Part shown: in pieces, positions 5,804 to 64,000 of the stretch
How the letters are laid out: each line of letters opens with the position of its first letter
Numbering within the stretch: the first letter of the stretch is position 1
DNA from: Alphaproteobacteria bacterium UBA3635
Lineage (GTDB): Bacteria; Pseudomonadota; Alphaproteobacteria; Rs-D84
NCBI GenBank assembly: GCA_002373935.1
Contig: DFKW01000012.1
Location: 4,814 to 68,813, forward strand
Direction: 5' to 3'
Length of the DNA stretch: 64,000 bases
Program-made: the position numbers and the translations under genes
The notes under the pieces: generated by a model
Seen by the model: only the letters and a program-made list of their open reading frames with translations
The model's database searches: none
Told to the model about the DNA's origin: nothing

Positions 5804-5841
5804 ATATAAAAAACAAAAACAGAACGCCCAAGGACGCGGAT

Positions 5842-6464: not shown

Positions 6465-6475
6465 CTTATACTCCT

Positions 6476-7332: not shown

Positions 7333-7377
7333 TATTATATCACAAAAAAAACATTATTCCAAATCGCAACCTTAATT

Positions 7378-7518: not shown

Positions 7519-7555
7519 ATCTTTCTCCATTATTTTTTTAATTTGGGCAACAATT

Positions 7556-16392: not shown

Positions 16393-18327
16393 TTACTTAT
16401 CTTTATCGGCCCTATATGCAATAAATCCGGCAAAAAACGCAACCAAGAATATTATAAACATCCACGCATCACGTCCCAACATACGATACAATGTCATATG
16501 CGAACCATGTACAACACCATCCAACACACCGATTTCACCGACCGGTAATTGTGATATAATCGAACCATCGGCACCGACAAAAGCACTGACCCCGGAATAA
16601 TTTGCGCGAATAACCGGCACACCCGATTCAATGGCCGCCCGACGCACCATATCCAGGTGTTGATACGTTCCCGGTGTCTTTCCAAACCAAGTATCATTTG
16701 TAATATTTATTATTGCATCAACACCCGATTGTTTAACCACCGCATCAGAAAAAATAATTTCATAACACACCGCCGGAGCAAATGCAAAATTTCGTCCCGA
16801 TTTACCATCCACAGACATAACCTTTGCACCATCACCCGCAGTTAAATTCGCCGGTGCCGGCACAAATTTAATTGGCCCATATTCACCAAACGGCACCAAA
16901 TGCGATTTATGATACACATCCAACATTGCACCATCCGCACCAGCCACAACCAAAGAATTATACACGCGCCCGTCATCAAATACCGTTGCGCCAACCGCCA
17001 CCGGCTTTTGCAACGCACTTGCAATCGGCATAACATCGTCACGCAACAACACGAACGGATACGATGTTTCCGGATACACAACAAAATCAACACTTGATAC
17101 ATCACCCGCCAATTTTATTAAATCAGAAACTCTATTTTTTGCCTGATTCAATGCATCCACACGCGACAGAGAAATCTTTTTTTGTTGTGTTGTCGCGGGC
17201 TGAACAATTCGCACCACAATCGAATCATCACCCAAACCCGACAATTTAATATTATTATGCGCACCGATAATTCCACCAGCCAACAACAACACAAAAAACA
17301 CAATCACCCATCGCAACACGCGATTTCGCCGTTCAGATAAAAATTGCGCAATACTGGCAGTCAAACCAATAATAACAAAAGTCAACCCCAACGCCCCAAA
17401 CACCGACATAGAATTAGCAACAATCGGATACGGCAACATAATATTCGCAATTGGATTCCATGGAAAACCGGTCAACAACCACTCGCGCAACCACAAAACA
17501 GATGTCCACGCACCGGCAAACAAAATCGGTTTTGCCCCAGATTTTATGTATATACACGACGTCAATACAAACGGAATTGTAAATATAACCGCGCCAACAA
17601 TACCGATACCTATTAAACCCGGCACCGTCCATATTGCAAACTGACGAGCCAATTCCGGTACAACATAAATCGAATGCAGAGTCCACCAAAACATCGATAT
17701 CGCATACATTGCACCAAACGGCACCGCACGCCACCACGCACGCCAAAAACCAATCCGCCCCACCCCGGAACACAACAGCCAATACGCAACACCGATTGAT
17801 AATACCGTCAACCACCACAAATTAAATGGTGCAAACCCAAATGCCGCAATTATACCCAATACCGTCAAAGCCACATATTTCCACCATGGAAACACAACCT
17901 CGTCTGCATAGGGATTTTTTATCCCCAGTTTTTTCAAAACCTTTATTTCTTTACCTTCCATCACGCGCGCCTGGGCATCGGTCAAATGATCATATCCCAA
18001 TAAATGAAACATACCATGCACAACCATATGCGTCGTATGCGCCTCCACAGAAATATTTGCATCTGCCGCCTGGGCCATAACAGTATCTAGTGATATATAA
18101 ATATCACCCAGTAAAATATCATCCCCCAATTCAAACGATAAAACATTGGTTGGTTTATCAATATTGCGATACATTTTATTCAGCGCATGAATTTCGTCGT
18201 CATTGGTCAAAGTAATTGAAACCTCGGCATCGCTGTATTTTTTACCAACGACCATATTCGCGATTTTTTCAAAATCGATATTATATTTTTTCCACCGTTT
18301 ATCGTTATAATTCACACAGACCTTCAT
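16393..18327 (-). CDS. Fusion of endoribonuclease YbeY (N-terminal, about 143 aa) and apolipoprotein N-acyltransferase Lnt (C-terminal, about 500 aa)
   Basis: The YbeY metal motif HGMFHLLGYDH is followed by ...KLGIKNPYADE. This runs with no stop or Met into VVFPWWKYVALTVLGIIAAFGFAPF..., a multi-TM Lnt N-domain, then a CN-hydrolase domain with the catalytic Cys in VCYEIIF. Confidence 0.8.
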   Translation of the reverse strand: MKVCVNYNDKRWKKYNIDFEKIANMVVGKKYSDAEVSITLTNDDEIHALNKMYRNIDKPTNVLSFELGDDILLGDIYISLDTVMAQAADANISVEAHTTHMVVHGMFHLLGYDHLTDAQARVMEGKEIKVLKKLGIKNPYADEVVFPWWKYVALTVLGIIAAFGFAPFNLWWLTVLSIGVAYWLLCSGVGRIGFWRAWWRAVPFGAMYAISMFWWTLHSIYVVPELARQFAIWTVPGLIGIGIVGAVIFTIPFVLTSCIYIKSGAKPILFAGAWTSVLWLREWLLTGFPWNPIANIMLPYPIVANSMSVFGALGLTFVIIGLTASIAQFLSERRNRVLRWVIVFFVLLLAGGIIGAHNNIKLSGLGDDSIVVRIVQPATTQQKKISLSRVDALNQAKNRVSDLIKLAGDVSSVDFVVYPETSYPFVLLRDDVMPIASALQKPVAVGATVFDDGRVYNSLVVAGADGAMLDVYHKSHLVPFGEYGPIKFVPAPANLTAGDGAKVMSVDGKSGRNFAFAPAVCYEIIFSDAVVKQSGVDAIINITNDTWFGKTPGTYQHLDMVRRAAIESGVPVIRANYSGVSAFVGADGSIISQLPVGEIGVLDGVVHGSHMTLYRMLGRDAWMFIIFLVAFFAGFIAYRADKDK

Positions 18328-35520: not shown

Positions 35521-35649
35521 ATGCCACTAAAAAAGAAAACCAACACGAAAAAATTTTTAATTTGGGCAATCATCATCATATTGATTGTGTTTATGGTTAT
35601 GTATTTTGCGCCCACCCAAACAACGATTGAATTGGAACTGTATCCATGA
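35521..35649 (+). CDS. Candidate 42-aa single-TM small protein (below the ORF-track cutoff)
   Basis: MPLKKKTNTKKFLIWAIIIILIVFMVMYFAPTQTTIELELYP. RBS gggga lies 7 nt upstream. Its stop overlaps the xerD ATG (ATGA). Confidence 0.3.
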   Translation: MPLKKKTNTKKFLIWAIIIILIVFMVMYFAPTQTTIELELYP

Positions 35650-36518
35650 ATTATATTGATATTTTCTTAGAGGCATTGGTTGCGGAACGCGGGCGCAGTG
35701 AAAAAACAATCGCAAGTTATGCATCTGACCTGAATCATGCAAACGATGCATTACCACACGGATTAATGGATGCGACCGCGGACGAAATACAAAACTATTT
35801 ATCCTCGCTTTCCGACCGCGCGTCATCTATTGCCCGCAAGGCAAGCGCTCTGCGTGGATTTTATAAATTTTTAATGCTGGAAAAAATAATCACAACCAAC
35901 CCGACAAAAAATATCGAATTACCAAAGCGCGCACGTCCATTACCAAAATTATTATCGGTTGAAGAAATCGAATTATTGATATCATCGGCGGGGGACACAA
36001 AAAATTCCACCCGTTTGCGCGCGATGTTGGAATTGGTATATGCATCGGGATTGCGCGTATCTGAATTATGTGAATTACCCATGACATCAATCTTGGGCGA
36101 CCATTTATTGGTTCATGGCAAGGGCGCCAAAGAACGCATGGTTCCAATGCACGCGGGCGCAATTGATGCATTAAACAAATGGTTGGCATTGCGCGGGGAC
36201 ACCGATTCGAAATATGTATTTCCCGGTTCTGGCAAAACCGGCCACATAACACGCGACGGATTTTTCAAAATATTAAAAAAATGTGCGATATTGGCGGGCA
36301 TTGACCCGAACCATGTATCACCGCATGTCCTGCGTCACTCGTTCGCGTCACACTTGTTATCACACGGTGCGAATTTGCGTGCGATACAAACTATGTTGGG
36401 ACACGAAGATATTTCAACAACTCAAATCTATACACATGTTTTACCGGAACAATTACGCGAAACGGTTGAAACATATCATCCATTATCAAATAACAAGCCC
36501 AAGGTTAAAGAACAATGA
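35646..36518 (+). CDS. xerD: Tyrosine recombinase XerD/XerC
   Basis: 290 aa with the R..HxxR..Y catalytic set (SGLRVSEL, HVLRHSFASHLL, GHEDISTTQIYTHV). Confidence 0.85.
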   Translation: MNYIDIFLEALVAERGRSEKTIASYASDLNHANDALPHGLMDATADEIQNYLSSLSDRASSIARKASALRGFYKFLMLEKIITTNPTKNIELPKRARPLPKLLSVEEIELLISSAGDTKNSTRLRAMLELVYASGLRVSELCELPMTSILGDHLLVHGKGAKERMVPMHAGAIDALNKWLALRGDTDSKYVFPGSGKTGHITRDGFFKILKKCAILAGIDPNHVSPHVLRHSFASHLLSHGANLRAIQTMLGHEDISTTQIYTHVLPEQLRETVETYHPLSNNKPKVKEQ

Positions 36519-37023: not shown

Positions 37024-37941
37024 TTAAAACTTATACTTGGCGGTACACCGCAAATAAGAATCTTTTAATGCCGACGACATAAGCAACGCGCGTTCGCGGG
37101 CCTGGCCCGAACGTTTGGCGGCGCGTTTATTTGAAATTGCGTTATAAAATTCTTCCAGTGTATGTGTTTCCAAATATTGATTCACGGCATTCGCCACACA
37201 ATCCGTCATAACCGATGTCGCACCACAATTTGCACCAACTGTTTCACGCAACTCGGCGGCGGCAATACCAATCCCACCCACAGAAAGCTGCATAACCGCG
37301 GCCAGAACCTGGGGTGGCAAATTATAATATTTATATTTGTAATAATGCCGTGTCCAATAAAATAATTTCGCATCCGCAACAGTCATCTTTCTAATACATT
37401 CAACCGACAACCCCGATGCACATGTGGTAATTCCATATTTTGTTGCGCCCAACAAATAATCACCATTTTTATCCTTTATCGGTTTACCATCCGGTCCACA
37501 TATACGATTTCCCGGGTCAGATGGCGTTTGCTGAAAACCTTTTTCGTATATCAATGCATAATCTATGGCATCATCAAAAATACATTTTTGAATTTTTTGT
37601 TCTTCTGTTTGCGGGTTGGTGTATAAAATTTTTCCGGCTTTATATGCATACACACATTTTGATGCAACATTTTTCACAAACGCGTCACATTTTTCGGCAC
37701 CGTCCGCGGTTGCGACATCCATCCCACCAACATAACACACATTACTCATCCCCGCCGCGTCTATTTCACCGGTTGTTGGATTCATTTGCGCCATATATTC
37801 ATTTGCAACATCAGACCACATATTTGATGGAAATGTTTCTTGGATTGCATCCGTCAACGCATCGGCATAAAAATACGCCGCCCACACATTTGAAGTGTTT
37901 GCAAAAAACACAGAACAAAAAATCAAAATCAATTTTTTCAT
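37024..37941 (-). CDS. Secreted GH108-like N-acetylmuramidase-family protein
   Basis: Signal peptide SVFFANTSNVWA/A. LIYEKGFQQTPSDPGN...GATKYGIT...MTVADAKLFYW...LPPQVLAAVMQLSVGGIGIAAAELRETVG follows the GH108 pattern (EGGY..DPGG.T.YGIT..lT..eA..iY) with an insertion. Confidence 0.55.
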   Translation of the reverse strand: MKKLILIFCSVFFANTSNVWAAYFYADALTDAIQETFPSNMWSDVANEYMAQMNPTTGEIDAAGMSNVCYVGGMDVATADGAEKCDAFVKNVASKCVYAYKAGKILYTNPQTEEQKIQKCIFDDAIDYALIYEKGFQQTPSDPGNRICGPDGKPIKDKNGDYLLGATKYGITTCASGLSVECIRKMTVADAKLFYWTRHYYKYKYYNLPPQVLAAVMQLSVGGIGIAAAELRETVGANCGATSVMTDCVANAVNQYLETHTLEEFYNAISNKRAAKRSGQARERALLMSSALKDSYLRCTAKYKF

Positions 37942-38792
37942 TTCAAAACTTTTTCACAATTTTGTGCCACATCGGCAACCTTTTTAATTGCCGATATTTG
38001 CGTTGCATTAAATACCGTTGCCGCCCCCGATAACGCCGTTGCGCCACCCGCCAAAACATTTGCCGCCGTATCTATTTTTTCGGCATTATTTGATACAGAA
38101 TTATTGGCAATCTGACTGGAAACAATACCCGCACCACCAACAACACCGCCCGCAATAGACGACACTTGTGCCCCACGCGCGCGCTTTTTTATTTTCGACA
38201 AATCGACATATTTATACCCAGAACACGCATTGTAAATCTCGTTGGCCTCGGTCACATCAACACCATTTGCACGCACCTGGATTATAATACCCTGTAAATC
38301 GTTTACCGCCGATATACAATTCCCAATTCGCGTATTTAATTCATCATCCGACGATGTGTTTTTCGTTGCCAAAATCGCGCCCGCCACATTTGCCGCGGTA
38401 TTTGCCGCCAACAACCCAGTGCGCCAATTTCCCAAATTTTTTGATTTTTTCGATTTTAGATTCGGTTTGAAATTCGATTGTTGCGTAATTTCCAATGACG
38501 CCCCAGATGCCGAAAAATTTTCATCATCTTCGATTTTTCTTAAATCACCAAACAATTCATTGTGATTTTTAATTCCGACAACAACCGCACCTGCGCCCGC
38601 CACCGTTCCAACACCGGTGACACCGGTATTTATCCCGGCGATTTTTTTCATGTCCCCCAACAAATCATCAATTCCTACACATGCCATATATGTTTTTTGC
38701 AACCCAGAATTCAACATCGCCACACCATCTGCATGCGCCGCCACAGGTAAAAACAATGCAACAAAAATCAAAAAGCGATAAATCATACACAA
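37938..38792 (-). CDS. Secreted Gly/Ala-rich protein with repeated glycine-zipper-like segments
   Basis: 284 aa with signal peptide ALFLPVAAHA/DG. Four GxxxG-rich hydrophobic stretches (TGVGTVAGAGAVVVG, AANVAGAILA, IAGGVVGGAGIV, LAGGATALSGAA). ATGA overlap with the downstream GH108-like gene. Confidence 0.5.
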   Translation of the reverse strand: MCMIYRFLIFVALFLPVAAHADGVAMLNSGLQKTYMACVGIDDLLGDMKKIAGINTGVTGVGTVAGAGAVVVGIKNHNELFGDLRKIEDDENFSASGASLEITQQSNFKPNLKSKKSKNLGNWRTGLLAANTAANVAGAILATKNTSSDDELNTRIGNCISAVNDLQGIIIQVRANGVDVTEANEIYNACSGYKYVDLSKIKKRARGAQVSSIAGGVVGGAGIVSSQIANNSVSNNAEKIDTAANVLAGGATALSGAATVFNATQISAIKKVADVAQNCEKVLK

Positions 38793-39801: not shown

Positions 39802-41082
39802 ATGTTGGATATAAAATTTATTCGTGAAAATCCGGACATCGTTCGCAACGCATGCCGTGTTAAAAATTTTCCCGATGTGGTTGACGAATTGTTAATGACG
39901 GACGCGCGTGTGCGTGAATTAAAAACAATTACACAAACCATGACCGCGGAAAAAAATAAAATTTCACGCGAAATTCCATCTGCCACCGACAAGGCACCAT
40001 TGATTCAACGCAGTAAAGAAATCAGCGATGAAATCGCCAACGATATGGCGGAATTAGCCACGGCGGAAGAAAAATTAAACGATTTAATGCATCGCGTGCC
40101 ACAAATACCGGCCGCATCCGCCCCCATTGGTGCGGACGATACGGCAAACACGGTTGTCAAAACCGTTGGGACCCCACGCAAATTTGATTTTACCCCGCGT
40201 CCCCAGTGGGATTTATTGGATATGAATAATTGGTGGATGCCGGAAAAAATCGCAAACACATGCGGCACGCGCGTATATGCATTATGCGGCGAATTGGCGG
40301 AATTGGAATTGGCGGTTCAAACATATGTAATTCAAAAATTGATTGGCAAAGGTTTCAAATACATCGATTGCCCATCAATTACAAAGCCCCAGACAATATT
40401 CAACGCCGGACATTTTATCGGTTCCGACATGTCGGTCATGAACAACGATGTGTTCATGCTGACAGATACCGACCGTTGCCTGGCGGGCACATCTGAAATC
40501 ATAATGAATTCTTTATTTGCGGGTGAAATTTTACCGGAATCCGAATTACCATTAAAATTCGCCGGATTTTCACCATGCTTTCGACGCGAGGCCGGCGCCG
40601 CCGGTCGCGACACAAGGGGCCTGGTTCGCGTTCATCAATTCAAAAAGGTTGAACAGTTTATATTCTGTCGCCCCGAAGATTCCGACGAAATGCACGAATT
40701 GCTGTTAAATAACCTGTGCGAAATTATGGTGGACCTTGAATTACCATACCGAGTCATTGCAAACTCAACCGGCGATATGGGATTCAACAAGGTTAAAATG
40801 AACGATGTCGAGGCATGGATTCCGTCCGAGGGAACATACCGCGAATTGGGTTCTTGTTCGTCAATCGGCACTTTCCAGGCACGCCGCACAAACACCCGTT
40901 TCCGCGAAAATGGCACGAACGAGGTTAAATTTGTTGCGACATTAAATAATACCGGAATCGCCCTGCCTCGCGCATTGGTGCCAATTATCGAAAATCACCA
41001 AAACCCGGATGGTTCGGTGAATATTCCAAAATGCCTGCAACCATTAATGGGTGGCAGAACAAAGATTGGTGGTTCCCATTAA
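39802..41082 (+). CDS. serS: Serine--tRNA ligase
   Basis: 426 aa with an N-terminal coiled-coil arm and class II motifs (FRREAGAAGRDTRGLVRVHQF, GSCSS...ARR). Confidence 0.92.
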   Translation: MLDIKFIRENPDIVRNACRVKNFPDVVDELLMTDARVRELKTITQTMTAEKNKISREIPSATDKAPLIQRSKEISDEIANDMAELATAEEKLNDLMHRVPQIPAASAPIGADDTANTVVKTVGTPRKFDFTPRPQWDLLDMNNWWMPEKIANTCGTRVYALCGELAELELAVQTYVIQKLIGKGFKYIDCPSITKPQTIFNAGHFIGSDMSVMNNDVFMLTDTDRCLAGTSEIIMNSLFAGEILPESELPLKFAGFSPCFRREAGAAGRDTRGLVRVHQFKKVEQFIFCRPEDSDEMHELLLNNLCEIMVDLELPYRVIANSTGDMGFNKVKMNDVEAWIPSEGTYRELGSCSSIGTFQARRTNTRFRENGTNEVKFVATLNNTGIALPRALVPIIENHQNPDGSVNIPKCLQPLMGGRTKIGGSH

Positions 41083-41096
41083 ACTTTATCCACCCA

Positions 41097-41158
41097 ATCG
41101 CGCCGTAGCATTGTTCATAATTACAAAACAAACTTTACAATTATCGGCGAAGGCGGAT
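41097..41158. repeat. Short intergenic repeat core, copy 1, inside a 110-nt insertion at the serS 3' end
   Basis: atcgcgccgtagcattgttc ... ta(t/c)cggcgaaggcggat. The same end blocks (20 of 20 and 16 of 17 nt) flank a different centre at 59815-59878. Confidence 0.6.
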
Positions 41159-41192
41159 GGGTGGCCGCACCAAGATTGGTGGCAAACACTAA
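41157..41192 (+). other. Displaced second copy of the last 12 serS codons
   Basis: atgggtggccgcaccaagattggtggcaaacactaa (MGGRTKIGGKH*) versus 41047-41082 atgggtggcagaacaaagattggtggttcccattaa (MGGRTKIGGSH*). 28 of 36 nt are identical, and five of the eight differences are synonymous. Confidence 0.65.
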
Positions 41193-41198
41193 ATAAAA

Positions 41199-41222
41199 AT
41201 GCCCAAACGGGCATTTTTTTTG
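41199..41222 (+). terminator. Rho-independent terminator following the distal serS-end copy
   Basis: atgccc aaac gggcat followed by a 9-nt T-run. Confidence 0.65.
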
Positions 41223-41226
41223 TTTA

Positions 41227-41255
41227 TTGTTGAAATTTGAAAAATATAGTATAAT
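41227..41255 (+). promoter_or_regulatory. Candidate sigma70-type promoter for typA
   Basis: ttgttg, 17-nt spacer, tataat. It lies about 37 nt upstream of the ATG. Confidence 0.35.
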
Positions 41256-41291
41256 CTATACACTTATTACGAAAAAAATGGGGATAAACAG

Positions 41292-43139
41292 ATGAAAATT
41301 CGCAACATTGCAATTATTGCACACGTGGACCATGGGAAAACAACCCTGGTTGACAATATGTTGAAACAGGCGGGAACTTTCCGCGAAAACGAACGGGTCG
41401 AAGACCGCGTCATGGACAGCGGCGACATCGAACGCGAACGCGGTATTACCATTTCTGCAAAGCCGACATCTATCCAATGGGGCGAATATAAAATTAATAT
41501 CGTTGACACCCCGGGCCACGCCGATTTCGGTGGCGAGGTTGAACGTATTTTATCCATGGTTGACGGCGTGGTGTTATTGGTTGACAGTGCCGAAGGCCCA
41601 CTGCCCCAAACAAAATTTGTGTTATCCAAGGCATTAAAACTGGGGCTGCGCCCGATTGTATGTATCAACAAGGTTGACCGCGCCGACGCCCGTCCCGAAG
41701 AAGTTTTAACCGAAACATTTGATTTGTTTGATAAATTGGGCGCGGATGACGCACAACTGGATTTCCCATATCTGTACGCGGTTGGCCGCGACGGTTGGGC
41801 GGTTCGCGATTTAAGTGAAATAAACAACCCAAACAAAGATTTGAAACCATTGTTCCAATTGATTGTGGACCATGTGCCGGCACCTGATTGCAACGGCACG
41901 CGTTGCCAACTGGACGCACCATTTAAAATGTTGGCCACAACATTAGAGGCCGACCCCTATGTCGGACGCATTTTAACCGGTAAAATCGAATCCGGAACCG
42001 TCCGCGTTGGTCAAACGGTCAAGGCAATCAATATGGCCGGCGAATTGGTTGAAACGGCAAAAATCACAAAAATCATCGAACACGCGGGTGTGCAAAAAGT
42101 ATCGCGTGATTCTGCATCGGCGGGTGACATCGTGGTTGTCGCCGGATTCAGTAAAGCAACCGTGGCGGACACATTGTGTGACCCATCTGTCACCGAACCT
42201 ATTCCGGCATTACCAATTGACCCACCAACCCTGACGATGACATTTTTTGTGAACACATCCCCTCTGGCGGGAAAATCCGGCAAAAAATTGACATCACGCA
42301 TGATTGGCGAACGGTTATTTCGCGAGGCCGAAACCAACATCGCCCTGCGCGTCACACAAAGTGCCAACAACGAATCTTTCGAGGTTTCCGGTCGTGGCGA
42401 ATTACAATTGGGTATTTTAATCGAAACAATGCGCCGCGAAGGTTTTGAATTGTCTGTGTCGCGCCCACGCGTTATCATGCACCAAAACGAAAACGGCGAA
42501 AAAATGGAACCAATCGAAGAAGTCGTTATCGATGTGGACGACGAATTCAGTGGTGTTGTTATTGAAAAAATGACCAAGCGCAAGGCAACCATTACAGACA
42601 TGAAACCATCCGGCATCGGCAAAACCCGCATTGTATTTTCGGCACCTTCACGCGGATTGATTGGATATTTATCTGAATTCCGCACCGACACACGCGGCAC
42701 CGGAATTATGAACCGTGTATTTGATAAATACGATTTATATCGCGGTCCAATCACACAATATCGCCCCGGTGTGTTGGTATCAATGGAGGCAGGACAAACA
42801 ACAACATACGCCCTGCACAATTTGGAACCACGTGGTGTTTTATTCGTTGGCCCACAAACCGAGGTTTATTCCGGTATGATTGTCGGTGAACACAGCAAAG
42901 AAAACGATATCGAGGTCAATCCTGTCAAAGGCAAACAATTAACCAATGTGCGCTCTGTGACCGCTGATGAAAAATTATTCTTGGCGCCACCGCGCAAAAT
43001 TTCATTGGAAGAGGCCCTGTCATACATCCAAGACGACGAATTGGTAGAGGTCACCCCTGCAACAATTCGCCTGCGCAAAAAAGAATTGGACAGCGGCAAA
43101 CGCAAAAAAGCATATCGTTTCGCGGAATCCGCAGATTAA
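41292..43139 (+). CDS. typA: Translational GTPase TypA/BipA
   Basis: IRNIAIIAHVDHGKTTL, DTPGHADF and NKVD match G1-G4. EF-G-like domains are followed by the BipA-specific C-terminus. Confidence 0.92.
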   Translation: MKIRNIAIIAHVDHGKTTLVDNMLKQAGTFRENERVEDRVMDSGDIERERGITISAKPTSIQWGEYKINIVDTPGHADFGGEVERILSMVDGVVLLVDSAEGPLPQTKFVLSKALKLGLRPIVCINKVDRADARPEEVLTETFDLFDKLGADDAQLDFPYLYAVGRDGWAVRDLSEINNPNKDLKPLFQLIVDHVPAPDCNGTRCQLDAPFKMLATTLEADPYVGRILTGKIESGTVRVGQTVKAINMAGELVETAKITKIIEHAGVQKVSRDSASAGDIVVVAGFSKATVADTLCDPSVTEPIPALPIDPPTLTMTFFVNTSPLAGKSGKKLTSRMIGERLFREAETNIALRVTQSANNESFEVSGRGELQLGILIETMRREGFELSVSRPRVIMHQNENGEKMEPIEEVVIDVDDEFSGVVIEKMTKRKATITDMKPSGIGKTRIVFSAPSRGLIGYLSEFRTDTRGTGIMNRVFDKYDLYRGPITQYRPGVLVSMEAGQTTTYALHNLEPRGVLFVGPQTEVYSGMIVGEHSKENDIEVNPVKGKQLTNVRSVTADEKLFLAPPRKISLEEALSYIQDDELVEVTPATIRLRKKELDSGKRKKAYRFAESAD

Positions 43140-54076: not shown

Positions 54077-56482
54077 TTGAGAACGTTCATTAAAATTTTT
54101 TCGACTTTATTTTTATGCGCACCATTTGCGGTTGCGGCGGCACCTGTTTCACAACCCGCGGGCAGCAACCTGACCCAATACAACGGTTCAATGGGGTCCA
54201 TCGTTGGCAATCAATGGAACAACGCATTAAACCCGCGCAATAACGCCGCAACACCAAAGGCCACGGCCGATTTTGGAAATTGTAATTCATTGATTTTGCG
54301 TTGTGCATCGCCCAAATGTTCTGGTGGCGGTTGTGCAAATATGGATATTGCAAAACCGATTGTTGCGGGATGTGTAAATTCAAATGCAAATTGTAAAAAA
54401 CACGGTGACGATTTAATAAACGCAATCGCGGCACAATTGGTGTCTGATTCAATCGCGGCACAAAATGCGGCGGCGGCGAACGCGGCGGCGGCGCAATCTG
54501 CGGCGGAACAAAATAATACGGCGTTGCAACAACAATTACAATCGATGCAGCAACAAATGGCATCCATGCAACAACAAAACAGTGAACAAATAAATTCACT
54601 GCAACAACAGTTGGCGGAATCACAACGCGAAACACAAAACGCGGTTGCATCTGTTGCGGAAAGCGCATCGCGTGCGGCAACGGCACAAAACCCCGACACG
54701 GGTCTAACCCCGGTGCAAGAGGCGGCGGCAAAATCGGGCGTATCGGATGATGTGATTGCGCGTGCAACAATAACGGGACAAATTTTAACCAGTATGGAAG
54801 GCGTCGACAAAAGTTTGAACAATTTGAAAACAACAATGCGTGACGCGTTCCGCTATGCGAAATGTAACGAGGTCAACGGAAATAATTGCAGTGCCCCAAA
54901 GCGCGTTGCGAAATTCCGCGAATTGGCAAACAAATTTATGGAACCATACGACGCATTGGCGGACAACCTGGACGATGCATTATTCACCGCACAATCGGTC
55001 GGTGTTGACCTGGGCAATATTTATATGTTTTTCAGTGGCTCTTGCAACCGTTGGGCGGAATACGTCTGCCGTGGGAATTATAGCGGCGGTTTGCCAGTGT
55101 ATTCAACCGTATCACGAACCGTTGCATATGTTCCAACTCTTATGGAATCCGTACAAAATGCTAAGAATTTAAAAATAGAAGTACCAACATCCACTGGTTT
55201 GGGCACATCTAATGGCGGATTAAATAATTATCATTTTGATGTCAACAGCCCATTATTAAATGACGCCGGCAGTTTTATGCGTAAACTATCGTTTATATCA
55301 GAGGCAGTTGCAGATAATATAATTTATGCCAGTTGTGGTTCAGATGGAAAATCTATAAAAAGTGGTGTTGTTCGTGGTGGACATCCCTGTGCGGACGGCA
55401 TGGTTATTCCACCCGAAGATTTAGTTGCATGCACCGTAAACAGAATTTTAGATGCAAATGAACCCGCGATACAGGAAAAAATCCTGAATCCCGACCAAAC
55501 ATCCACGGGTTCGGTGCGTATCGGTTGTGCCAGTGACGGTATAAATTCCGGCCTGATAAAACGTCGCCGCAGCAGCAGTAAAAACAAATCCGGCATTGAC
55601 ATCGATTTGTTGGAAATTATGTTGAACCAGGATGAATCAAGTTCAAAATTTTCTAGTAAATTTCAAAAGTGTGATAGTGACACAACATCCGCATGTTATT
55701 GTGGTCTGGGCATGAAAAATGCCGATAGTAAAGACAAAGCAATCACCCAGTTAAAGACCGCAACCGTATCAAAAACTTTGGGCAAAAATGCATGCATTGA
55801 ATCATTTGGATCTGATTCAACAAATTCAAAAACTGTTGATTGCTATGATTTAGACCAAGATGTCTCTTATGTTGATCCGGTATTTGCACTGTGTGATACA
55901 CACGTATGGAACGCGGGACTGAAATCAAATGACGACATCAATGGTTCCGGCAAATCCGAAGATCGCGAAAAAATGAACGAAATAATCGCATTGAAAACAA
56001 CCGTGATTGCACAACAAATGTATAAACAATACGCAACACTGGAACAAATGATTAAACAATTAAAGGTCATGTTGGAAAAAGAAGTATTAAAGGCATCTGT
56101 CCAGGTTGCCGGCGGCACATCGTCCGACACCGACACAACAGACAAGGTAGAATTTTCATCTTGTTCCGCATTTGACGATGAAGAAGCATTAAGTTGCTTG
56201 CGCGACAATTACGCAAAATTACAACCGATTGTTGAAAAAGGCAGATTAAATAACAATTACAGAGACCAACTGAGCAAAGATTGCGCAGTATTAGAAGCAC
56301 TTAGTTTAGTCGGCAGTGATAACAAGAAATTTTCTTGTAAATCCAAGTGTTCAAATATCAACAGCAAACAAAACATGCAAAATTGCTTGGAACAAATTGC
56401 TGGTGGTATAAATGCGTTAAACAGACGCATAAAAGACGATAAAGCAAAAAACAACAGTATCAGATACCAATTGATTCAATAA
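54077..56482 (+). CDS. Large secreted Cys-rich / coiled-coil protein of unknown function (TTG start)
   Basis: 801 aa with signal peptide LFLCAPFAVAAA/P and RBS gagagag. It has an N-terminal Cys cluster, an Ala/Gln-rich coiled coil (QQQLQSMQQQMASMQQQ) and many further Cys residues. Confidence 0.6.
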   Translation: MRTFIKIFSTLFLCAPFAVAAAPVSQPAGSNLTQYNGSMGSIVGNQWNNALNPRNNAATPKATADFGNCNSLILRCASPKCSGGGCANMDIAKPIVAGCVNSNANCKKHGDDLINAIAAQLVSDSIAAQNAAAANAAAAQSAAEQNNTALQQQLQSMQQQMASMQQQNSEQINSLQQQLAESQRETQNAVASVAESASRAATAQNPDTGLTPVQEAAAKSGVSDDVIARATITGQILTSMEGVDKSLNNLKTTMRDAFRYAKCNEVNGNNCSAPKRVAKFRELANKFMEPYDALADNLDDALFTAQSVGVDLGNIYMFFSGSCNRWAEYVCRGNYSGGLPVYSTVSRTVAYVPTLMESVQNAKNLKIEVPTSTGLGTSNGGLNNYHFDVNSPLLNDAGSFMRKLSFISEAVADNIIYASCGSDGKSIKSGVVRGGHPCADGMVIPPEDLVACTVNRILDANEPAIQEKILNPDQTSTGSVRIGCASDGINSGLIKRRRSSSKNKSGIDIDLLEIMLNQDESSSKFSSKFQKCDSDTTSACYCGLGMKNADSKDKAITQLKTATVSKTLGKNACIESFGSDSTNSKTVDCYDLDQDVSYVDPVFALCDTHVWNAGLKSNDDINGSGKSEDREKMNEIIALKTTVIAQQMYKQYATLEQMIKQLKVMLEKEVLKASVQVAGGTSSDTDTTDKVEFSSCSAFDDEEALSCLRDNYAKLQPIVEKGRLNNNYRDQLSKDCAVLEALSLVGSDNKKFSCKSKCSNINSKQNMQNCLEQIAGGINALNRRIKDDKAKNNSIRYQLIQ

Positions 56483-58470: not shown

Positions 58471-59766
58471 ATGAACAACGATACGATATTTGCACTTTCC
58501 AGTGGTTTTGGAAAATCTGGTGTTGCGGTCATCCGCATATCTGGCGATAATTTACAAGAATTTTTCAGCACAATATCCGGTCGCAAAAATCCCGGCGCAC
58601 GCACCGCATATTTTTGTAATCTGCGCGATGATGCGGGCGATTTAATTGACCAATGCATTGTAATTTATTTTGCCGCACCCGCGTCATTCACCGGGCAAGA
58701 CATTATTGAAATACACAGCCACGGCGCCACGGCGGTAATAAATAAAATATTTGATTTTTTATCCCGGCACAATATGCGCATGGCCACACCCGGCGAATTT
58801 TCCCGTCGCGCATTTATGAACGGCAAAATGGATTTGGCGGACATCGACGGACTGGCGGCATTATTGGATGCACAAACCGAGCGCCAACGCCAATTTGCAT
58901 TAAAATCTATGCTGGGTGGTGACGGTAAAATTTATGCCGCGTGGCGCGAACAAATGATTGAAATCGCCGCATACGCCGCCGCAATTTTGGACTATGATGA
59001 AAATGATTTACCAAGCAATATCGATAAAAAAATCCTGGCCCAGACACGCGAATTACATAATGAAATCAAAACAACACTTTCGCATTACAACATATCACGC
59101 GCAATCACACACGGATTTAATATCGCGTTATGCGGCGAAACAAATGTCGGCAAATCATCATTGTTTAATAAATTGGTTGGCACAAATCGCGCCATCGTAT
59201 CAGATATTGCCGGCACAACCCGGGATGTGATATCTGCACAAATCGATTTAGATGGTTTTTTGGTAAACTTATCTGATACCGCCGGCATACGCGACACGGG
59301 CGACAAAATTGAAAAAATGGGAATCGATAAAACAAAATCGGAAATCAATTCCGCAGATTTGATTTTGCATGTATTCGCAGATGACAATGTCGCAACACCA
59401 ACGGACAAAGAAATTGTCGTCATAAATAAATCTGACAAAATCAAAACACGCAATAATAAAAATGCAATTTATACATCAACAAAAACAGGCGATGGAATTG
59501 ATGAACTATTAAACACAATCCGCAAAAAAATGCACAGTATATTGGACGGCGCCGAAAACAATTTAGTTATAAACGCACGCACACATAAATTATTGTCGGA
59601 CACAGAACACGAATTAAATTCAGCCCTGACAACATTTGACGGCAATTATGATATATTCGCCGAACATGTGCGCCGCGCCGCCGACAACATTGGAAAAATA
59701 TTGGGCACTATCACGGCAACGGACGTCATGGACGCAACATTTTCACAACTGTGTTTGGGGAAATGA
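58471..59766 (+). CDS. mnmE: tRNA modification GTPase MnmE
   Basis: DTIFALSSG..., G-domain (GETNVGKSSL, DTAGIR, NKSD) and the C-terminal CLGK motif. Confidence 0.92.
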   Translation: MNNDTIFALSSGFGKSGVAVIRISGDNLQEFFSTISGRKNPGARTAYFCNLRDDAGDLIDQCIVIYFAAPASFTGQDIIEIHSHGATAVINKIFDFLSRHNMRMATPGEFSRRAFMNGKMDLADIDGLAALLDAQTERQRQFALKSMLGGDGKIYAAWREQMIEIAAYAAAILDYDENDLPSNIDKKILAQTRELHNEIKTTLSHYNISRAITHGFNIALCGETNVGKSSLFNKLVGTNRAIVSDIAGTTRDVISAQIDLDGFLVNLSDTAGIRDTGDKIEKMGIDKTKSEINSADLILHVFADDNVATPTDKEIVVINKSDKIKTRNNKNAIYTSTKTGDGIDELLNTIRKKMHSILDGAENNLVINARTHKLLSDTEHELNSALTTFDGNYDIFAEHVRRAADNIGKILGTITATDVMDATFSQLCLGK

Positions 59767-59814
59767 CGATTTTCGTTATTGCGCGTTGAAAACGCACAAT
59801 TAAGAAAATCGATC

Positions 59815-59878
59815 ATCGCGCCGTAGCATTGTTCGTTATCTTGAACCCAACACCCCGTCCTTACCGGCGAAGGCGGAT
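59815..59878. repeat. Short intergenic repeat core, copy 2
   Basis: atcgcgccgtagcattgttc ... taccggcgaaggcggat. Same ends as 41097-41158. Confidence 0.6.
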
Positions 59879-59903
59879 AAAAAACCGCCGTTTCGGCGGT
59901 TTT
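59877..59903. terminator. Bidirectional terminator between mnmE and the first acyl-CoA ligase gene
   Basis: accgccg ttt cggcggt flanked by A- and T-runs. Confidence 0.6.
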
Positions 59904-59912
59904 AATAACAAA

Positions 59913-61487
59913 TTACACTTCTGTATACTTACTGTCTATCAAATTTTGTTTAACGACATGATGTTTAATTTTCTGCGTACTGGTCATCGGCAAATCGTCC
60001 GTCGTCATCGCAAAATGGGTCACCCATTTATATTTGGCAACGCGTTTATTTGCATCCGCCACGGCGCGTGATAATTTTTCCGCCGTCATATTTTCATCAA
60101 CCTGGAACACACCATAGGCAACGGTTTTACCACCGACAACATGTTCGAAAACCGCAACATTTTTAACACCGGGGATGTCTAAAAACAATGCCTCTAATTC
60201 ATCCGGATAGACATTTTTACCACTGTCCAAAACGATGACTTGTTTTTTACGTCCGGCAAAATGCAATTCGCCGTTTTTGTCCTGGTACACCAAATCCCCG
60301 GTTTTGAAAAATCCGCGTTCATCAAAAGATTCTGCATTGGCGGCATCATTATTCAAATACCCACCAAAAACTTGGTGTCCACGCACCCACAGCATGCCAA
60401 TTCCATTTTCATCTTTGTCACGAATTTCACACTCGTTCGTCCCCAGTGGCGCGCCAAACGCATACGGGATACGCTTTTTCACCGGGCGCGACCCACAAAA
60501 TGGTCCAACCGTTTCGGTCATGCCATAGCCCTGGATAAACGCGATACCCAAACTGTTATAGAAATTTTCAACCTCGGGCTTGGTGGCGGCACCGCCGGCA
60601 ATCATCAACTGCACGCGTCCACCAAATACTTGCTTGATTTGGTTTTGCACTTTGTCCACCAATATTCCCAAACCGATTTTGCGTAACCATTTTTGATTTT
60701 TCAAAACGAAAGATACAATCCACCATTTTTTCTGGGATTTGATTTCTTCGATAATTTTCTTGCGGAACAATTCCCACATTTTTGGAACCGACGGAATAAC
60801 ATGCGGGCGAAATTCTTTGAAATCTGCCAATATCAATTTTGGATTGATTGACGGTTGCAACAAAATTCCCATTTGGAAATGTAATGGAGCCAAAAAACCG
60901 GCGGCAAAACCAAATATGTGATACAACGGCAAAAACCCATACAGCACCCCACCCGGCTGGAACCAATCATTAAAATCATCAAAAGAATTTGCACACTCAA
61001 TCAAATTAAAATGTGTCAGTGGCACAATTTTCGGTGTCCCCGTTGACCCAGATGTGAACGACAAAGTCGCAATATCATTTGCATTTAACGGGTATGGTTG
61101 CAAATCCGCATCCACATCATCATCCACCGTTTGAATATCAAAAAATTTGAATCCCTTGGCGTCATAGAAAAAAGATTTTTCCGCCGCAACCAATTTACAT
61201 TGCGTCAACGCCGTCATATTGTCATATTCCGTCGTGGTTAAATTTGTATCCAACAACAACACACGCGCACCACGATACCATGCGGCAAACATTGTTATAA
61301 TAAATTCCGGAATATTATGCGCCAACACGCCCAGTGTATCACCAAATTCAACACCGATTTTTTTCAGTGTTGTTGCACGCGCCCGCACCAGTTTTGGAAA
61401 ATCTTCGAATTTAATTTTTTCACGCACCAGGAAAAGTGTCTGGGGACACTTTTCCATTGTTTGTTCAAAAAATTGATACATATTCAT
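59913..61487 (-). CDS. AMP-dependent synthetase/ligase (long-chain acyl-CoA-synthetase-like), paralogue 1
   Basis: 524 aa with FTSGSTGTPK, GYGMTE, TGD...GRKKQVIVLDSGKNVYPDELE. Confidence 0.8.
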   Translation of the reverse strand: MNMYQFFEQTMEKCPQTLFLVREKIKFEDFPKLVRARATTLKKIGVEFGDTLGVLAHNIPEFIITMFAAWYRGARVLLLDTNLTTTEYDNMTALTQCKLVAAEKSFFYDAKGFKFFDIQTVDDDVDADLQPYPLNANDIATLSFTSGSTGTPKIVPLTHFNLIECANSFDDFNDWFQPGGVLYGFLPLYHIFGFAAGFLAPLHFQMGILLQPSINPKLILADFKEFRPHVIPSVPKMWELFRKKIIEEIKSQKKWWIVSFVLKNQKWLRKIGLGILVDKVQNQIKQVFGGRVQLMIAGGAATKPEVENFYNSLGIAFIQGYGMTETVGPFCGSRPVKKRIPYAFGAPLGTNECEIRDKDENGIGMLWVRGHQVFGGYLNNDAANAESFDERGFFKTGDLVYQDKNGELHFAGRKKQVIVLDSGKNVYPDELEALFLDIPGVKNVAVFEHVVGGKTVAYGVFQVDENMTAEKLSRAVADANKRVAKYKWVTHFAMTTDDLPMTSTQKIKHHVVKQNLIDSKYTEV

Positions 61488-61489
61488 AA

Positions 61490-63067
61490 TTACGCACCCT
61501 TTTCTTGATATTTTCCATCAATCAGGTATTGACGCACAACATGATGTTTAACCTTTTGCGTTGATGTCACCGGCAAATCGTCCGTTGTCATTGCAAAATG
61601 GGTCACCCATTTATAGGACGCAACTTTTTTGTTCTTTTCGGCAATACCCGCGGCCAGACGTTCCATCGTCATATCTTCGTCAACGCTGAACACGCCATAC
61701 GCGACGGTTTTACCTTTGACCTCGTGCTCGAACACGGCAACATTACGGACACCCGGAATTTCGATAAACAGACCTTCTAACTCATCCGGATAAACATTTT
61801 TACCACTATCCAAAACAATCACTTGTTTTTTACGGCCGGCAAAATGGAATTCGCCATTTTTATCCATCGACACCAAATCACCGGTACAGAAAAATCCGCG
61901 TTTATCAAAGCACTCTTTGTTCGCGGCATCATTGTTCAAATATCCGCCGAACACTTGGTCACCTTTGACCCACAGCATTCCAATACCGTTTTCATCCGGA
62001 TTACGAATTTCACAACAATTTGACCCCAGTGGCGCACCAAACGCATACGGCACGCGTTTTTTCACCGGCTTCGAACAACAGATTGGTCCAACCGTTTCGG
62101 TCATACCATAACCTTGGACAAACGCCATTCCCAAATTGTTATAGAAATTTTCAACCTCGGGTTTCGTGGCGGCACCACCGGCAACCAAACAACGCACGCG
62201 TCCACCAAATACGGCACGAATTTGATTCAACACTTTATCAACCAATTTGCCCAAACCAATTGCGCGCAAAGTTTTTTGATGACGCATAACGAACGACACC
62301 AAACCCCATTTCTTTTTTGCCTTGATATTATCGATAATTTTCTTGCGGAAAATTTCGAACAATTTTGGCACCGCCGGAATAACATGCGGTTTGTATGTTG
62401 CGAAATCTTGCATAATTGCATTTGGATTGATTGTCGATTGCAACAGAACACTCATCCCGAAATGCAGTGGCGCCAAAAATCCAACGGCAAAACCAAACAC
62501 ATGGTACAACGGCAAAAATCCATACATCACCTCGCCATGACGCAAGAATATATTTAATGTTTCCAAATTTTCCGAACAAGAAACCAAATTTTTATGTGTC
62601 AGTGGCACAATTTTTGGTGTCCCCGTTGACCCGGATGTGAACGACAATGTTGCAATATCATCTTCTTTTAATTTATGTTGTTTAACCTTGGCATCGGGGT
62701 TATCCACCGATTCAATATCGAAAAATTTGAACTTTTTCGCTTTATAGAAAAAAGATTTTTCCGCAACAACCAATTTGCAATTTGTGCGTTCGGTCATATT
62801 GTCATATTCTTCTGGTGTTAAATTTGTATCTAACAACAAAACCGTCCCACCCAAATACCAAATTGCAAACAAAGTGTACATAAATTGTGGCAAATTATGC
62901 GACAACAATCCAACCACATCACCGGGTTTAACACCCGCCGCCGCCAATGCCGCCGCACGCGGTTCGATGTATTTTGGCAAATCTTCATAATTTACCTGTT
63001 CGCGCACCAAGAACGGCAATTTACCATTTTTCTTGATGTTTTCATTTAACAAATCATACATAGTCAT
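61490..63067 (-). CDS. AMP-dependent synthetase/ligase, paralogue 2
   Basis: 525 aa, colinear with paralogue 1 along its full length and carrying the same motifs. Confidence 0.8.
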   Translation of the reverse strand: MTMYDLLNENIKKNGKLPFLVREQVNYEDLPKYIEPRAAALAAAGVKPGDVVGLLSHNLPQFMYTLFAIWYLGGTVLLLDTNLTPEEYDNMTERTNCKLVVAEKSFFYKAKKFKFFDIESVDNPDAKVKQHKLKEDDIATLSFTSGSTGTPKIVPLTHKNLVSCSENLETLNIFLRHGEVMYGFLPLYHVFGFAVGFLAPLHFGMSVLLQSTINPNAIMQDFATYKPHVIPAVPKLFEIFRKKIIDNIKAKKKWGLVSFVMRHQKTLRAIGLGKLVDKVLNQIRAVFGGRVRCLVAGGAATKPEVENFYNNLGMAFVQGYGMTETVGPICCSKPVKKRVPYAFGAPLGSNCCEIRNPDENGIGMLWVKGDQVFGGYLNNDAANKECFDKRGFFCTGDLVSMDKNGEFHFAGRKKQVIVLDSGKNVYPDELEGLFIEIPGVRNVAVFEHEVKGKTVAYGVFSVDEDMTMERLAAGIAEKNKKVASYKWVTHFAMTTDDLPVTSTQKVKHHVVRQYLIDGKYQEKGA

Positions 63068-63105
63068 TTTTTTGTCCCTTTATATAAAAACAATTTATAA
63101 ATAAA

Positions 63106-64000
63106 TTATTCGTGTCTTATCGGATATTTACCATCAATCAGATTTTGACGCACAACATGGTGTTTAACCTTTTGCGTTGATGTCATTGGCAAATCGTCCG
63201 TTGTCATTGCGAAATGGGTCACCCATTTATACGACGCAACCTTTTTATTCGCATCCGCCACCGCGGCCGCCAAACGTTCCATTGTCATGTCGGCATCAAC
63301 ACTGAACACAGCATACGCAACGGTTTTATCTTTGACCCGATGCTCAAACACCGCAACATTTTTAACACCCGGAATATCCAAGAACATCGCTTCCAATTCA
63401 TCAGGATAGACATTTTTACCACTATCCAAAACGATGACCTGTTTTTTACGACCGGCAAAATGTAATTCGCCATTTTTGTCCATATATACCATGTCACCCG
63501 TGTTAAAGAATCCGCGTTCATCAAACACTTCTTTATTCACCGCATCGTTATTCAGATATCCACCAAACACCTGGTGCCCACGCAACCACAAAACACCGAC
63601 GCCATTTTCGTCTTTGTCACGAATTTCGCATTCGTTGTTTGTCGTTGGTGCACCCACAGAAAACGCCATACGTTTTTTATTTGGTTTTGATATACAAATT
63701 GGCCCCACCGTTTCGGTTAAACCATAACCTTGGATAAATGCCAGCCCCAAGTTTTCATAAAAAGTTTCAACCTCGGGCTTGGTGGCGGCACCACCCGCAA
63801 TCAGCAACCGGACGCGTCCACCAAAAATATCCAAAATTGGTTCTTGAACCTTGCGCACAAAGAAACCCAATCCCATATCATTGATACGTTCACGGTTGCG
63901 CAAAATAAAATCAACAATGCGCCATTTCTTTTGTGCCTTTAATGTGTCCATAATTTTTGCACGGAACATTTCCCACAAACGCGGCACCGCCGGAATAACA
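63106..64000 (-). CDS. AMP-dependent synthetase/ligase, paralogue 3 (C-terminal part; the gene continues past the right edge)
   Basis: The reading frame stays open upstream of the track start. ...VIPAVPRLWEMF aligns with VIPAVPKLFEIF and VIPSVPKMWELF at mid-protein in paralogues 2 and 1. Confidence 0.8.
   Translation of the reverse strand, partial: VIPAVPRLWEMFRAKIMDTLKAQKKWRIVDFILRNRERINDMGLGFFVRKVQEPILDIFGGRVRLLIAGGAATKPEVETFYENLGLAFIQGYGLTETVGPICISKPNKKRMAFSVGAPTTNNECEIRDKDENGVGVLWLRGHQVFGGYLNNDAVNKEVFDERGFFNTGDMVYMDKNGELHFAGRKKQVIVLDSGKNVYPDELEAMFLDIPGVKNVAVFEHRVKDKTVAYAVFSVDADMTMERLAAAVADANKKVASYKWVTHFAMTTDDLPMTSTQKVKHHVVRQNLIDGKYPIRHE

Follow-up and report, generated by a model that had tools for sequence, protein, structure and literature searches.

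A synonymously diverged duplicate of the serS gene end, separated from the native end by a conserved hairpin, recurs as an insertion polymorphism in gut Alphaproteobacteria

Integrative elements are known to settle at the 3' ends of tRNA, tmRNA and housekeeping genes, as SGI1 does at trmE/mnmE and GIsul2 at guaA. Such incoming DNA restores the 3' end of its target gene and leaves the old end behind as a direct repeat, which is also the layout that we describe here for serS, the seryl-tRNA synthetase gene, in a 64,000-nt stretch of the genome of Alphaproteobacteria bacterium UBA3635 (assembly GCA_002373935.1, contig DFKW01000012.1; hereafter the window). Integrative elements, however, need a tyrosine or serine recombinase of their own and a defined attachment (att) core, and the serS block has neither. 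The closest known architecture is that of gene hybrids in fungal mitochondria, which were generated in atp6, atp9, cox2 and nad3 of Glomus sp. and in atp6 of Allomyces by mobile endonuclease open reading frames (ORFs) (PMC3630166). There, as in serS, an inserted C-terminal segment replaces the native one and the native end is displaced downstream; the differences between the ends are mostly synonymous, the inserted copy is judged to be foreign, from horizontal transfer, and related strains lack the insertion (PMC3630166). The fungal elements are about 1 kb long, and their mobility is driven by a LAGLIDADG or GIY-YIG endonuclease of their own (PMC3630166); the serS locus holds a 60-nt hairpin with neither ORF nor endonuclease, in a bacterium.

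A recount bore out the first-pass annotation of the window, according to which the serS end occurs twice, 110 nt apart, with 28 of 36 positions identical and five synonymous differences. The eight differing positions (22% of sites) between the gene-side copy, c1, and the copy next to the terminator, c2 (Table 1), are AGA/CGC (two), ACA/ACC, GGT/GGC, CAT/CAC and TCC/AAA (three), and by the Nei-Gojobori method they amount to 4.5 synonymous and 3.5 non-synonymous changes. Only 74 non-coding nt separate the copies, and the boundaries of the insert are uncertain by 9 nt (41047-41055 equals 41157-41165). The Ser-His tail is found only in the window and in L001, while 70+ relatives carry Lys-His (L denotes loci and contigs of the comparison, X sequencing runs). 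The window holds no further gene-end duplication. The arrangement is genuine and the assembly sound: an independent 481-nt contig (run X1, depth 33) equals 40789-41269 with 0 differences, the junctions are also spanned by contigs of runs X2, X4, X5 and X23, and independent assemblies from at least six samples agree.

Among strains that are 98-99% identical around the site, three allelic states exist, namely empty, one insert (the window, X1, X5, X23) and two inserts with three ends (L001, X13, X30). Unoccupied sites are present in the close strains X8 and X24 and also in the more distant relatives L019, L030, L044 and L067. In X8 (sheep gut; its 'DNA' label was guessed by the tool), a 2149-nt contig joins the serS body straight to c2, matching 40850-41030 with 3/181 differences, then 16 divergent nt, then 41157-41350 with 2/194 differences; the divergent patch hints at a recombination breakpoint in the end of serS. 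X24 has the exact joint 41046 to 41157 with a 110-nt skip; whether its library was made from RNA or DNA is ambiguous, and with an RNA library this joint could be mimicked by reverse transcriptase jumping from one 9-nt repeat to the other, a caveat that does not apply to X8. Since the empty alleles join the serS body to c2, c2 is the end that the empty allele uses; it also adjoins the native terminator, and the earlier proposal that the distal copy is the ancestral end therefore holds. The same is true of the proposal that the insertion supplies its own synonymously diverged last 12 codons, as the 110 nt are absent from X8 and X24 and the copies differ mainly synonymously. Empty, single and double alleles were found together in ruminant gut samples (runs labelled bovine, sheep or gut metagenome).

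The arrangement is not confined to these strains. A scan of relatives with one genome per species gave 80 loci, with SerS 79-97% identical, all from Candidatus Enterousia or gut Alphaproteobacteria of ruminants, horse and chicken; Candidatus Enterousia, the genus of the window too, belongs to the order Rs-D84 lineage and has genomes under about 1 Mb (PMC12306168). Besides the window, at least 12 Enterousia genomes or contigs show the duplicated-end layout (L001, L004, L014, L015, L017, L018, L034, L035 and the metagenome contigs L106, L134, L150 and L156), and most Enterousia species lack the block. L001 has three ends, and in L018 the distal copy has decayed. Between the ends lies either a type A hairpin of about 60 nt, as in the window, or a type B hairpin of 33-35 nt (…TGTCACACGAAGCCTTGGCGAAGTGTGA). 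Each unit terminates in …GA followed by TGG, and the junction falls at base 2 of the 36-nt block (A|TGGGYGG) or at base 24 (ATTGG|TGGAAA, in L134 and L150). L156 carries two identical cores, c1 equals c2 in L134, and only the left stub of a type A unit remains in L023. Mosaic copies also exist: the third copy of L001 consists of a c2 head and a c1 tail, and the c1 head of X5 has been converted to a c2-like one. In L150 (reverse strand, oriented 1913-3241), a 30-nt minimal unit stands in frame within SerS, …KIG[LSRRSETKAD]GKH*, leaving an intact ORF of 436 aa with 10 inserted residues, four residues (counting the split glycine) before the SerS C-terminus. A protein search for in-frame SerS inserts with a 45-aa query returned only 6 candidates.

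The way in which the copies differ tells more about their history. In 14 comparisons of first and distal copies from 11 genomes, we counted 61.5 synonymous and 17.5 non-synonymous changes (78% synonymous), against about 37% synonymous expected from neutral drift after in-situ duplication (binomial p about 1e-13; the comparisons are not fully independent). At about 0.58 changes per site, the synonymous sites of the end copies are close to saturation, much like those of serS between Enterousia species (proportion of differing synonymous sites, pS, 0.54-0.65), and the nine differences between the ends of L017 leave the distal peptide unchanged. The mostly synonymous differences indicate that each copy diverged as a working gene end, in different lineages, and that one end is foreign. 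Direct repeats 110 nt apart that flank a stable hairpin could also be a product of mis-assembly or of replication slippage, that is, of an in-situ tandem duplication that diverged later, and local duplication does occur, as L134 and L156 demonstrate. We nevertheless hold both to be extremely improbable. The copies are 22% apart, which is too much for a fresh duplication when the flanks of occupied and empty alleles diverge by 1-2%; the synonymous excess and the intact distal peptide of L017 also contradict slippage, and the concurring assemblies contradict an artefact.

A clue to the origin lies in the sequences beside the hairpin. The type A core is enclosed by an outer stem, CCRCCC-AA[core]T-GGGYGG, whose 3' arm is formed by the first 7-8 bases of c2. 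This stem covaries, with CCGCCC/GGGCGG in L004, L034, L106, L134 and L150 and CCACCC/GGGTGG in the window and L001, and in L156 CTACCC faces GGGTGG via a G.U pair. The native serS terminators of relatives read CCGCCC-AAAT-GGGCGG-Tn (L029, L050 and L037; loop AAAC in L027, GTTT in L028 and L033) or CACCC-AAAT-GGGTG-Tn (L045; loop GAAT in L036). The outer stem matches these native stems, and a type A unit thus resembles a serS terminator that has taken the core into its loop and has a serS end in place of its 3' arm and T run. In the window, the outer stem has the 60-nt core as its loop and is followed by coding-like c2 and no T run, which places it outside the definition of an intrinsic terminator, and we read it, from its sequence, as a former one. 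Terminator loop and 3' arm (AATGGGCGG) equal the gene from codon -12 onward (TTA-ATG-GGC-GG) over 7-9 nt, and L029 has the 9 nt AATGGGCGG in common between its terminator and its own codon -12 region. At L059 (5290-5347), a type B unit lies in the loop of an intact serS terminator, CGCCCG|AACTTGTCACAC…GTGTGA|CGGGCG-T8, with no duplicated end.

On balance, we lean towards an origin of the block in which short homology let the arm of a hairpin-bearing terminator recombine with codon -12 of a different serS allele, and ordinary recombination then spread the product. Hairpin units would lodge in the loop of the serS terminator, as in L059; through short homology, the 3' arm of a terminator so occupied would then be fused to ATGGGYGG in a different serS allele, with a normal left crossover in the serS body. 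The product would be donor end, linker, 5' arm, hairpin, recipient end and recipient terminator, in this order. The likeness between terminator arm and codon -12 would explain why the repeat starts at the Met codon and why the stem arms covary, and the descent of the ends from different lineages would explain the synonymous differences. Homology-facilitated illegitimate recombination, in which natural transformation combines one homologous anchor with a microhomology junction, offers a parallel: the proposed origin would likewise pair a homologous crossover in serS with a 7-9-nt junction at ATGGGYGG. Experiments have shown that process for the acquisition of foreign genes; to our knowledge, it is not on record as the repeated origin of duplicated gene ends at a single locus.

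Once formed, the block could spread and be lost via ordinary RecA-type recombination; recA, ruvA, ruvC and mutL all lie within the window. Unequal crossing-over between the 36-nt repeats might yield arrays of up to three ends, the mosaics and a return to the empty allele. Occupied and empty alleles are collinear to the right of the core, which suggests that c2 is continually exchanged with the working end of empty alleles, and as long as the site is polymorphic, gene flow from these alleles, in which the same sequence is the working end, would maintain c2. After an occupied allele has been fixed, the distal copy would decay. The most damaged copies are indeed those adjoining the terminator (Gly>Cys in L014, Gly>Arg in L035, a lost stop codon in L106, Thr-Tyr in the third copy of L150, a wrecked copy in L018), while middle copies are intact, a pattern in keeping with the addition of new material on the gene side. 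The refreshing of c2 and the direction of transfer, like the recombination at the terminator arm itself, are what we infer from these observations.

Several observations weigh against this origin. No type A core was seen within a complete terminator of stem and T run, the sole intermediate of that kind being the type B unit of L059; in type B arrays, only 3-5 nt lie between stop codon and hairpin, and the 5' arm of a terminator is unrecognisable. No duplication without a hairpin was found even though microhomology exists without one, which leaves the role of the hairpin unexplained. Microhomology of at least 7 nt between a genome's own terminator and its own codon -12 occurs in 3/67 cases against 2.5% in the control, no more often than by chance, and because of this the proposal needs a donor and a recipient from different lineages. 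Moreover, the c2 copies of the window and L001 agree at 35/36 positions where neutral drift should have left about 10 changes; gene flow from empty alleles would account for this, but direct selection on c2 may be the cause instead. A secondary deletion between the 9-nt repeat could have produced the empty alleles. Finally, a donor of c1 could not be identified from the 36-nt block, which is too short to be informative; the serS 3' region of carriers shows no similarity to one another beyond the general conservation of the region.

Table 1. Features of the serS end and of the second hairpin copy (positions within the window)
Feature	Positions	Strand	Basis or remark
serS (seryl-tRNA synthetase), 426 aa	39802-41082	+	ORF; Pfam Seryl_tRNA_N + tRNA-synt_2b; working frame terminates in c1
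c1, replacement copy: final 11 codons + stop, MGGRTKIGGSH*	41047-41082	+	ATGGGTGGCAGAACAAAGATTGGTGGTTCCCATTAA; translated copy
110-nt block missing from empty allele (c1, linker, 5' stem arm, hairpin core)	41047-41156	+	
Linker ACTTTAT, stop codon to stem arm	41083-41089	+	
CCACCCA, 5' arm of outer terminator-like stem, complementary to 41158-41164	41090-41096	+	Inverted repeat + RNAfold
Hairpin core type A: TC-G-CGCC / GTAGCA … loop … GGCGAA / GGCG-GA	41098-41157	+	
c2, displaced original end, MGGRTKIGGKH*	41157-41192	+	ATGGGTGGCCGCACCAAGATTGGTGGCAAACACTAA; out of serS frame, untranslated
3' arm of outer stem = first bases of c2	41158-41164	+	
Intrinsic bidirectional terminator of serS	41195-41221	+	Stem 41195-41218, then T run
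typA/bipA, downstream neighbour	41292-43139	+	Promoter region after serS terminator
Second family member, mnmE 3' untranslated region	59767-59905	+	Upstream hairpin 59767-59812, core 59816-59877, terminator 59881-59905; no gene-end duplication

A replacement end beside a displaced native end is the classic attL/attR signature, and the first-pass annotation had drawn the analogy with an integrase-type element. If a tyrosine-recombinase element whose attP carried the gene end had integrated at the serS 3' end, the 74 nt would be its remnant. The 36-nt direct repeats do include the serS 3' end, c1 is absent from empty alleles, the serS-typA spacer is a variable islet in most relatives (95-2635 nt), and a tyrosine recombinase gene lies 4.5 kb upstream. 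However, this gene (35646-36518), the sole tyrosine recombinase of the window, belongs to the Phage_integrase family and scores as XerD/XerC, and an XerD-like gene stands next to serS in at least 70 of the 80 loci, occupied or empty; it is the housekeeping XerD. No integrase, transposase or homing endonuclease is encoded in the 110 nt or in the 80 related serS-typA spacers (0/103 spacer ORFs is an integrase), and longer, integrase-bearing versions of the block are absent from the 80 loci. In the window, 50 of 55 ORFs scanned against Pfam include no integrase, transposase, reverse transcriptase or homing endonuclease; the other five were judged by eye (ruvA, mnmE and three long-chain-fatty-acid-CoA-ligase-like genes). 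The repeat boundary coincides with the terminator-arm microhomology, and the 74 nt are conserved, structured and of a family that also occurs without a gene-end repeat. Taken together, we rate such an element as highly improbable. The alternative proposed with it, the scar of a decayed element, fails as well: the 74 nt are invariant in the runs examined, and linker and core are 74/74 identical between the window and L001, at a serS synonymous divergence (dS) of 0.36. A conserved and structured repeat between the ends is not a scar.

The genes of the islets speak against such an element as well. The shortest spacers, those of L019, L030, L044 and L067, consist of stop codon, terminator and typA promoter only and lack both hairpin unit and genes. 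In most species, the spacer holds 1-5 small reverse-strand ORFs of several unrelated orphan families, packed like operons with 10-30-nt gaps that contain neither repeats nor hairpin sites; these compact operons have no att-like repeats. An integron-like cassette array was rejected because of the tight packing and the lack of hairpin sites. Representatives of the 8 largest clusters (72/103 spacer ORFs) have no Pfam match. L013 instead carries an Eco57I-like methylase and a Tsp45I-like restriction enzyme, and apart from this restriction-modification pair no endonuclease domain was found among the tested spacer ORFs of relatives. The window's own serS-typA spacer is free of such small ORFs.

Across L001-L080, the spacer (locus about 5282-7900) is a hypervariable islet of 0-5 ORFs of about 110-290 aa from at least 10 orphan families. 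On the other side of serS, the reverse strand of the window encodes two orphan ORFs at 37024-38792 (305 and 284 aa) with hydrophobic N-termini and no Pfam match, flanked by a DnaJ-domain gene and by trxB. Many relatives have no space for these two ORFs, since their XerD gene ends about 1.5 kb before serS. The pair looks like another local insertion.

The hairpin itself is a member of a repeat family. As the first-pass annotation had noticed, its core recurs downstream of mnmE (58471-59766): the 20-mer ATCGCGCCGTAGCATTGTTC is found again exactly at 59815-59834 (0.01 chance matches expected) and CGGCGAAGGCGGAT at 59865-59878. The family signature is …CGCC-GTAGCA…GGCGAAGGCGGA, and scanning metagenomes for CGCCGTAGCA-N20-50-GGCGAAGGCGGA gave 79 contigs, in which the low-GC matches form the family; high-GC matches (L082, L085, L088, L090, L107, L116, L121, L128, L141, L149 and L152) were excluded as being inside long ORFs and probably due to chance. 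Rumen-type copies are intergenic, some of them just upstream of a terminator-like hairpin, and have loops of about 40 nt with conserved ends ATTGTTCGTAAT…CACTTATC. Copies from other environments have a short conserved loop or form tandem 30-nt minimal units, and the family is much wider than Enterousia. The same scaffold was seen in the non-rumen contigs L081, L094, L096, L097, L103-L105, L111, L142, L144 and L151 (GC 0.38-0.48) and in L157, L113 and L084, where the short conserved loop reads GTAGCATATCTTCTATGAAGTTCT…GGCGAAGGCGGA and tandem 30-nt minimal units also occur.

The conservation of the family is extreme. In orthologues of the mnmE copy (loci L092, L114, L118, L122, L132, L137 and L154), the core is 64/64 identical in six contigs and 62/64 in L122, while over its last 400 nt mnmE agrees with that of the window at only 80-88% in the 4 comparable contigs of those six and at 78% in L122. 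No run examined reported a variant in 41083-41156. The consensus fold is (G/A)TC-N-CGCC / GGCG-GA(C/T) with a GUA/GAA internal loop and an inner GC/GC stem, and its free basal pair covaries (G-C 17, A-T 14, G.T 7, A.C 2; Fisher p 4e-4). Type B has ACAC/GTGT in place of CGCC/GGCG, which makes three compensatory pairs, and the G.U pairs favour folding on the + strand, in the sense of the mRNA. We conclude that the hairpin is strongly constrained, and that it probably functions as RNA within the 3' untranslated region (UTR). Rfam gives no match at the gathering score in the whole window, only sub-threshold, terminator-driven ones around both copies, and neither tRNA nor tmRNA was found in the window. 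The family, widespread in metagenomes, appears to be previously undescribed.

Upstream of the mnmE core, a small hairpin has a stem that is entirely different in sequence in most contigs (TGCGCGTT…ACGCACA against AAAAACGGTAT…ATACCGTTTTT) and is enclosed by a conserved outer stem, CGATTTT/AAAATCG. The linker before the serS hairpin also differs between species, reading ATTATAC, TAATCCGTT, TAGCCTGTT or ATCACGT elsewhere. The octamer ttatccac (TTATCCAC), previously compared to a DnaA box, is present at 41087-41094, but it is made up of linker and stem arm, and it is not conserved, relatives reading ATTATACCCGCCC or TAATCCGTTCCACCC there, among others; the likeness is a coincidence.

Membership of the hairpin in either of two known repeat classes could not be shown. 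Repetitive extragenic palindromic (REP) sequences and bacterial interspersed mosaic elements are likewise extragenic hairpins between stop codon and terminator, with an invariant GTAG and with tandem arrays in some genomes; the hairpin may also resemble the REPs of Pseudomonas (GTAGGAGC…GCGAAG). It differs from REP in that GTAG lies in an internal loop and not 5' of the palindrome, in having 2 copies per 64 kb, and in that no REP-associated tyrosine transposase (RAYT) or other Y1 transposase is encoded by the 50 window ORFs scanned. Rickettsia palindromic elements (RPEs) share with the family that they are short ORF-less hairpin repeats in a reduced alphaproteobacterial genome, mostly in 3' UTRs (PMC10969869), and their ability to stand in frame within essential genes, as a translated palindromic repeat, has one counterpart here, in SerS of L150, the window unit being untranslated. 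RPEs are, however, about 100-150 bp long and present in many copies (PMC10969869), and they are not known to carry a replacement gene end. The hairpin family is low-copy and very strongly conserved at orthologous sites.

Other classes were considered and rejected. A miniature inverted-repeat transposable element does not fit, the flanking repeat being 36 nt at 78% identity and not a short exact duplication, with no flanking repeat at other loci, although the hairpin stem could count as inverted ends. For a retron, an integron attC site or a T-box, either the defining features fail or there is no Rfam match. A diversity-generating retroelement is contradicted by differences (C/A, C/T, T/C) at positions without adenine in either copy, and no reverse transcriptase is found among the scanned window ORFs.

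It is nevertheless conceivable that the hairpins (types A, B and minimal) are site-specific, ORF-less mobile units, moved in trans and homing 5' of TGGGYGG or TGGAAA, with the replacement end as part of the unit; we judge this rather unlikely. The use of the same junction (…GA|TGGG) by different subtypes, together with the second site (ATTGG|TGGAAA) in L134 and L150, speaks for it, and so do the clean in-frame position of the 30-nt unit in the coding end of L150 and the type B unit of L059, which sits in the terminator loop just 5' of CGGGCG. Type B (33 nt) is open in the serS frame in 3/4 cases, tandem arrays of the family occur elsewhere (L133, L140, L099), and its members are present in many environments. 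Yet no partner enzyme is in sight, as Y1/HUH transposases, insertion sequences and RAYTs are absent among the window's 55 ORFs (50 scanned, five by eye). Copies are few: the window has two, and about 640 kb of related flanks have none beyond the serS spacer. At other loci, the copies share no 3' flank and are bordered by no gene-end repeats, only by tandem copies of the element itself. Finally, c1 and linker differ greatly among carriers of near-identical type A cores, so that end and hairpin do not look like one conserved unit. Whether as a new class of ORF-less, site-seeking element or as a new conserved 3'-UTR RNA, the GTAGCA…GGCGAAGGCGGA hairpins, lodging in hairpin loops and 5' of TGGGYGG and able to sit in frame in an essential gene, might travel at serS with a recoded end, a view to which we give little credence; if true, bacteria would have in them a miniature equivalent of the 'inserted C-terminus' mobile ORFs of mitochondria, and the enzyme that moves them would either be encoded at another place or not exist at all.

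The strong conservation also raises the idea that the whole c1-hairpin-c2 block is a selected RNA structure, for instance in the stability or processing of serS mRNA. Linker, core and c2 together are 109/110 identical between the window and L001 despite the divergence of serS, 41083-41156 is free of polymorphism in every run, the predicted fold has -61 kcal/mol (z -4.3) with G.U pairs on the + strand, and a metatranscriptome contig spans 40982-41193 (the RNA runs gave low-depth contigs only). This device is improbable in our view, since c2 is dispensable in several carriers: it is wrecked, truncated or replaced in L018, L015, L023 and L106 with the core unchanged, and the conserved core beside a wrecked or replaced c2 in L018, L034 and L106 indicates that c2 is not needed there. 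The conserved stem includes only the first 8 nt of c2, and the absence of the block from most Enterousia species also counts against a selected device. The two c2 polymorphisms, at 41162 and 41180, are both GGT>GGC and synonymous in type, which follows the logic of codons and not of pairing; the T>C change at 41162 breaks the outer stem with no compensating change. These data are consistent with our preferred origin by recombination at the terminator arm, in which c2 would be kept by exchange with a working gene end.

Translation of c2 was also considered. Read-through, frameshift or bypass is not supported by the spacings between copies (69, 71, 79, 110, 112 and 113 nt), which keep no consistent frame. 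A separate mini-ORF on c2 is unlikely, its ATG and the only Shine-Dalgarno-like bases being buried in the stem, and a reverse-strand ORF over c2 (41086-41214, 42 aa) found no support and is a by-product of the repeat.

Elsewhere in the window, a few further features were noticed. A 644-aa ORF on the reverse strand (16393-18327) combines a YbeY endoribonuclease domain with those of apolipoprotein N-acyltransferase (LNT_N and CN_hydrolase) and is either a gene fusion or two genes without a stop codon between them. Downstream of the mnmE hairpin, the reverse strand carries three tandem paralogues (59913-63987; two of 524 and 525 aa and one truncated at the edge of the window) that look by eye like enzymes of the long-chain-fatty-acid-CoA-ligase type. 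Short internal direct repeats occur at 6640-6940 in the ORF 6510-7541 and at 54531-54609 in the ORF 54077-56482, both of them large ORFs without a Pfam match.

Where a replacement end stands beside a displaced native one, the usual reading is the trace of an island brought in by an integrase. Here the pattern occurs without a recombinase gene of its own, and its ingredients would be a 60-nt hairpin, a chance likeness of a terminator arm to codon -12, and ordinary recombination. For annotators, this means that such repeats alone are insufficient to infer a lost island. The serS locus is a natural marker of interspecies gene flow in an uncultured gut symbiont with a genome below 1 Mb, and it indicates that foreign sequence is able to replace the end of an essential aminoacyl-tRNA synthetase gene.

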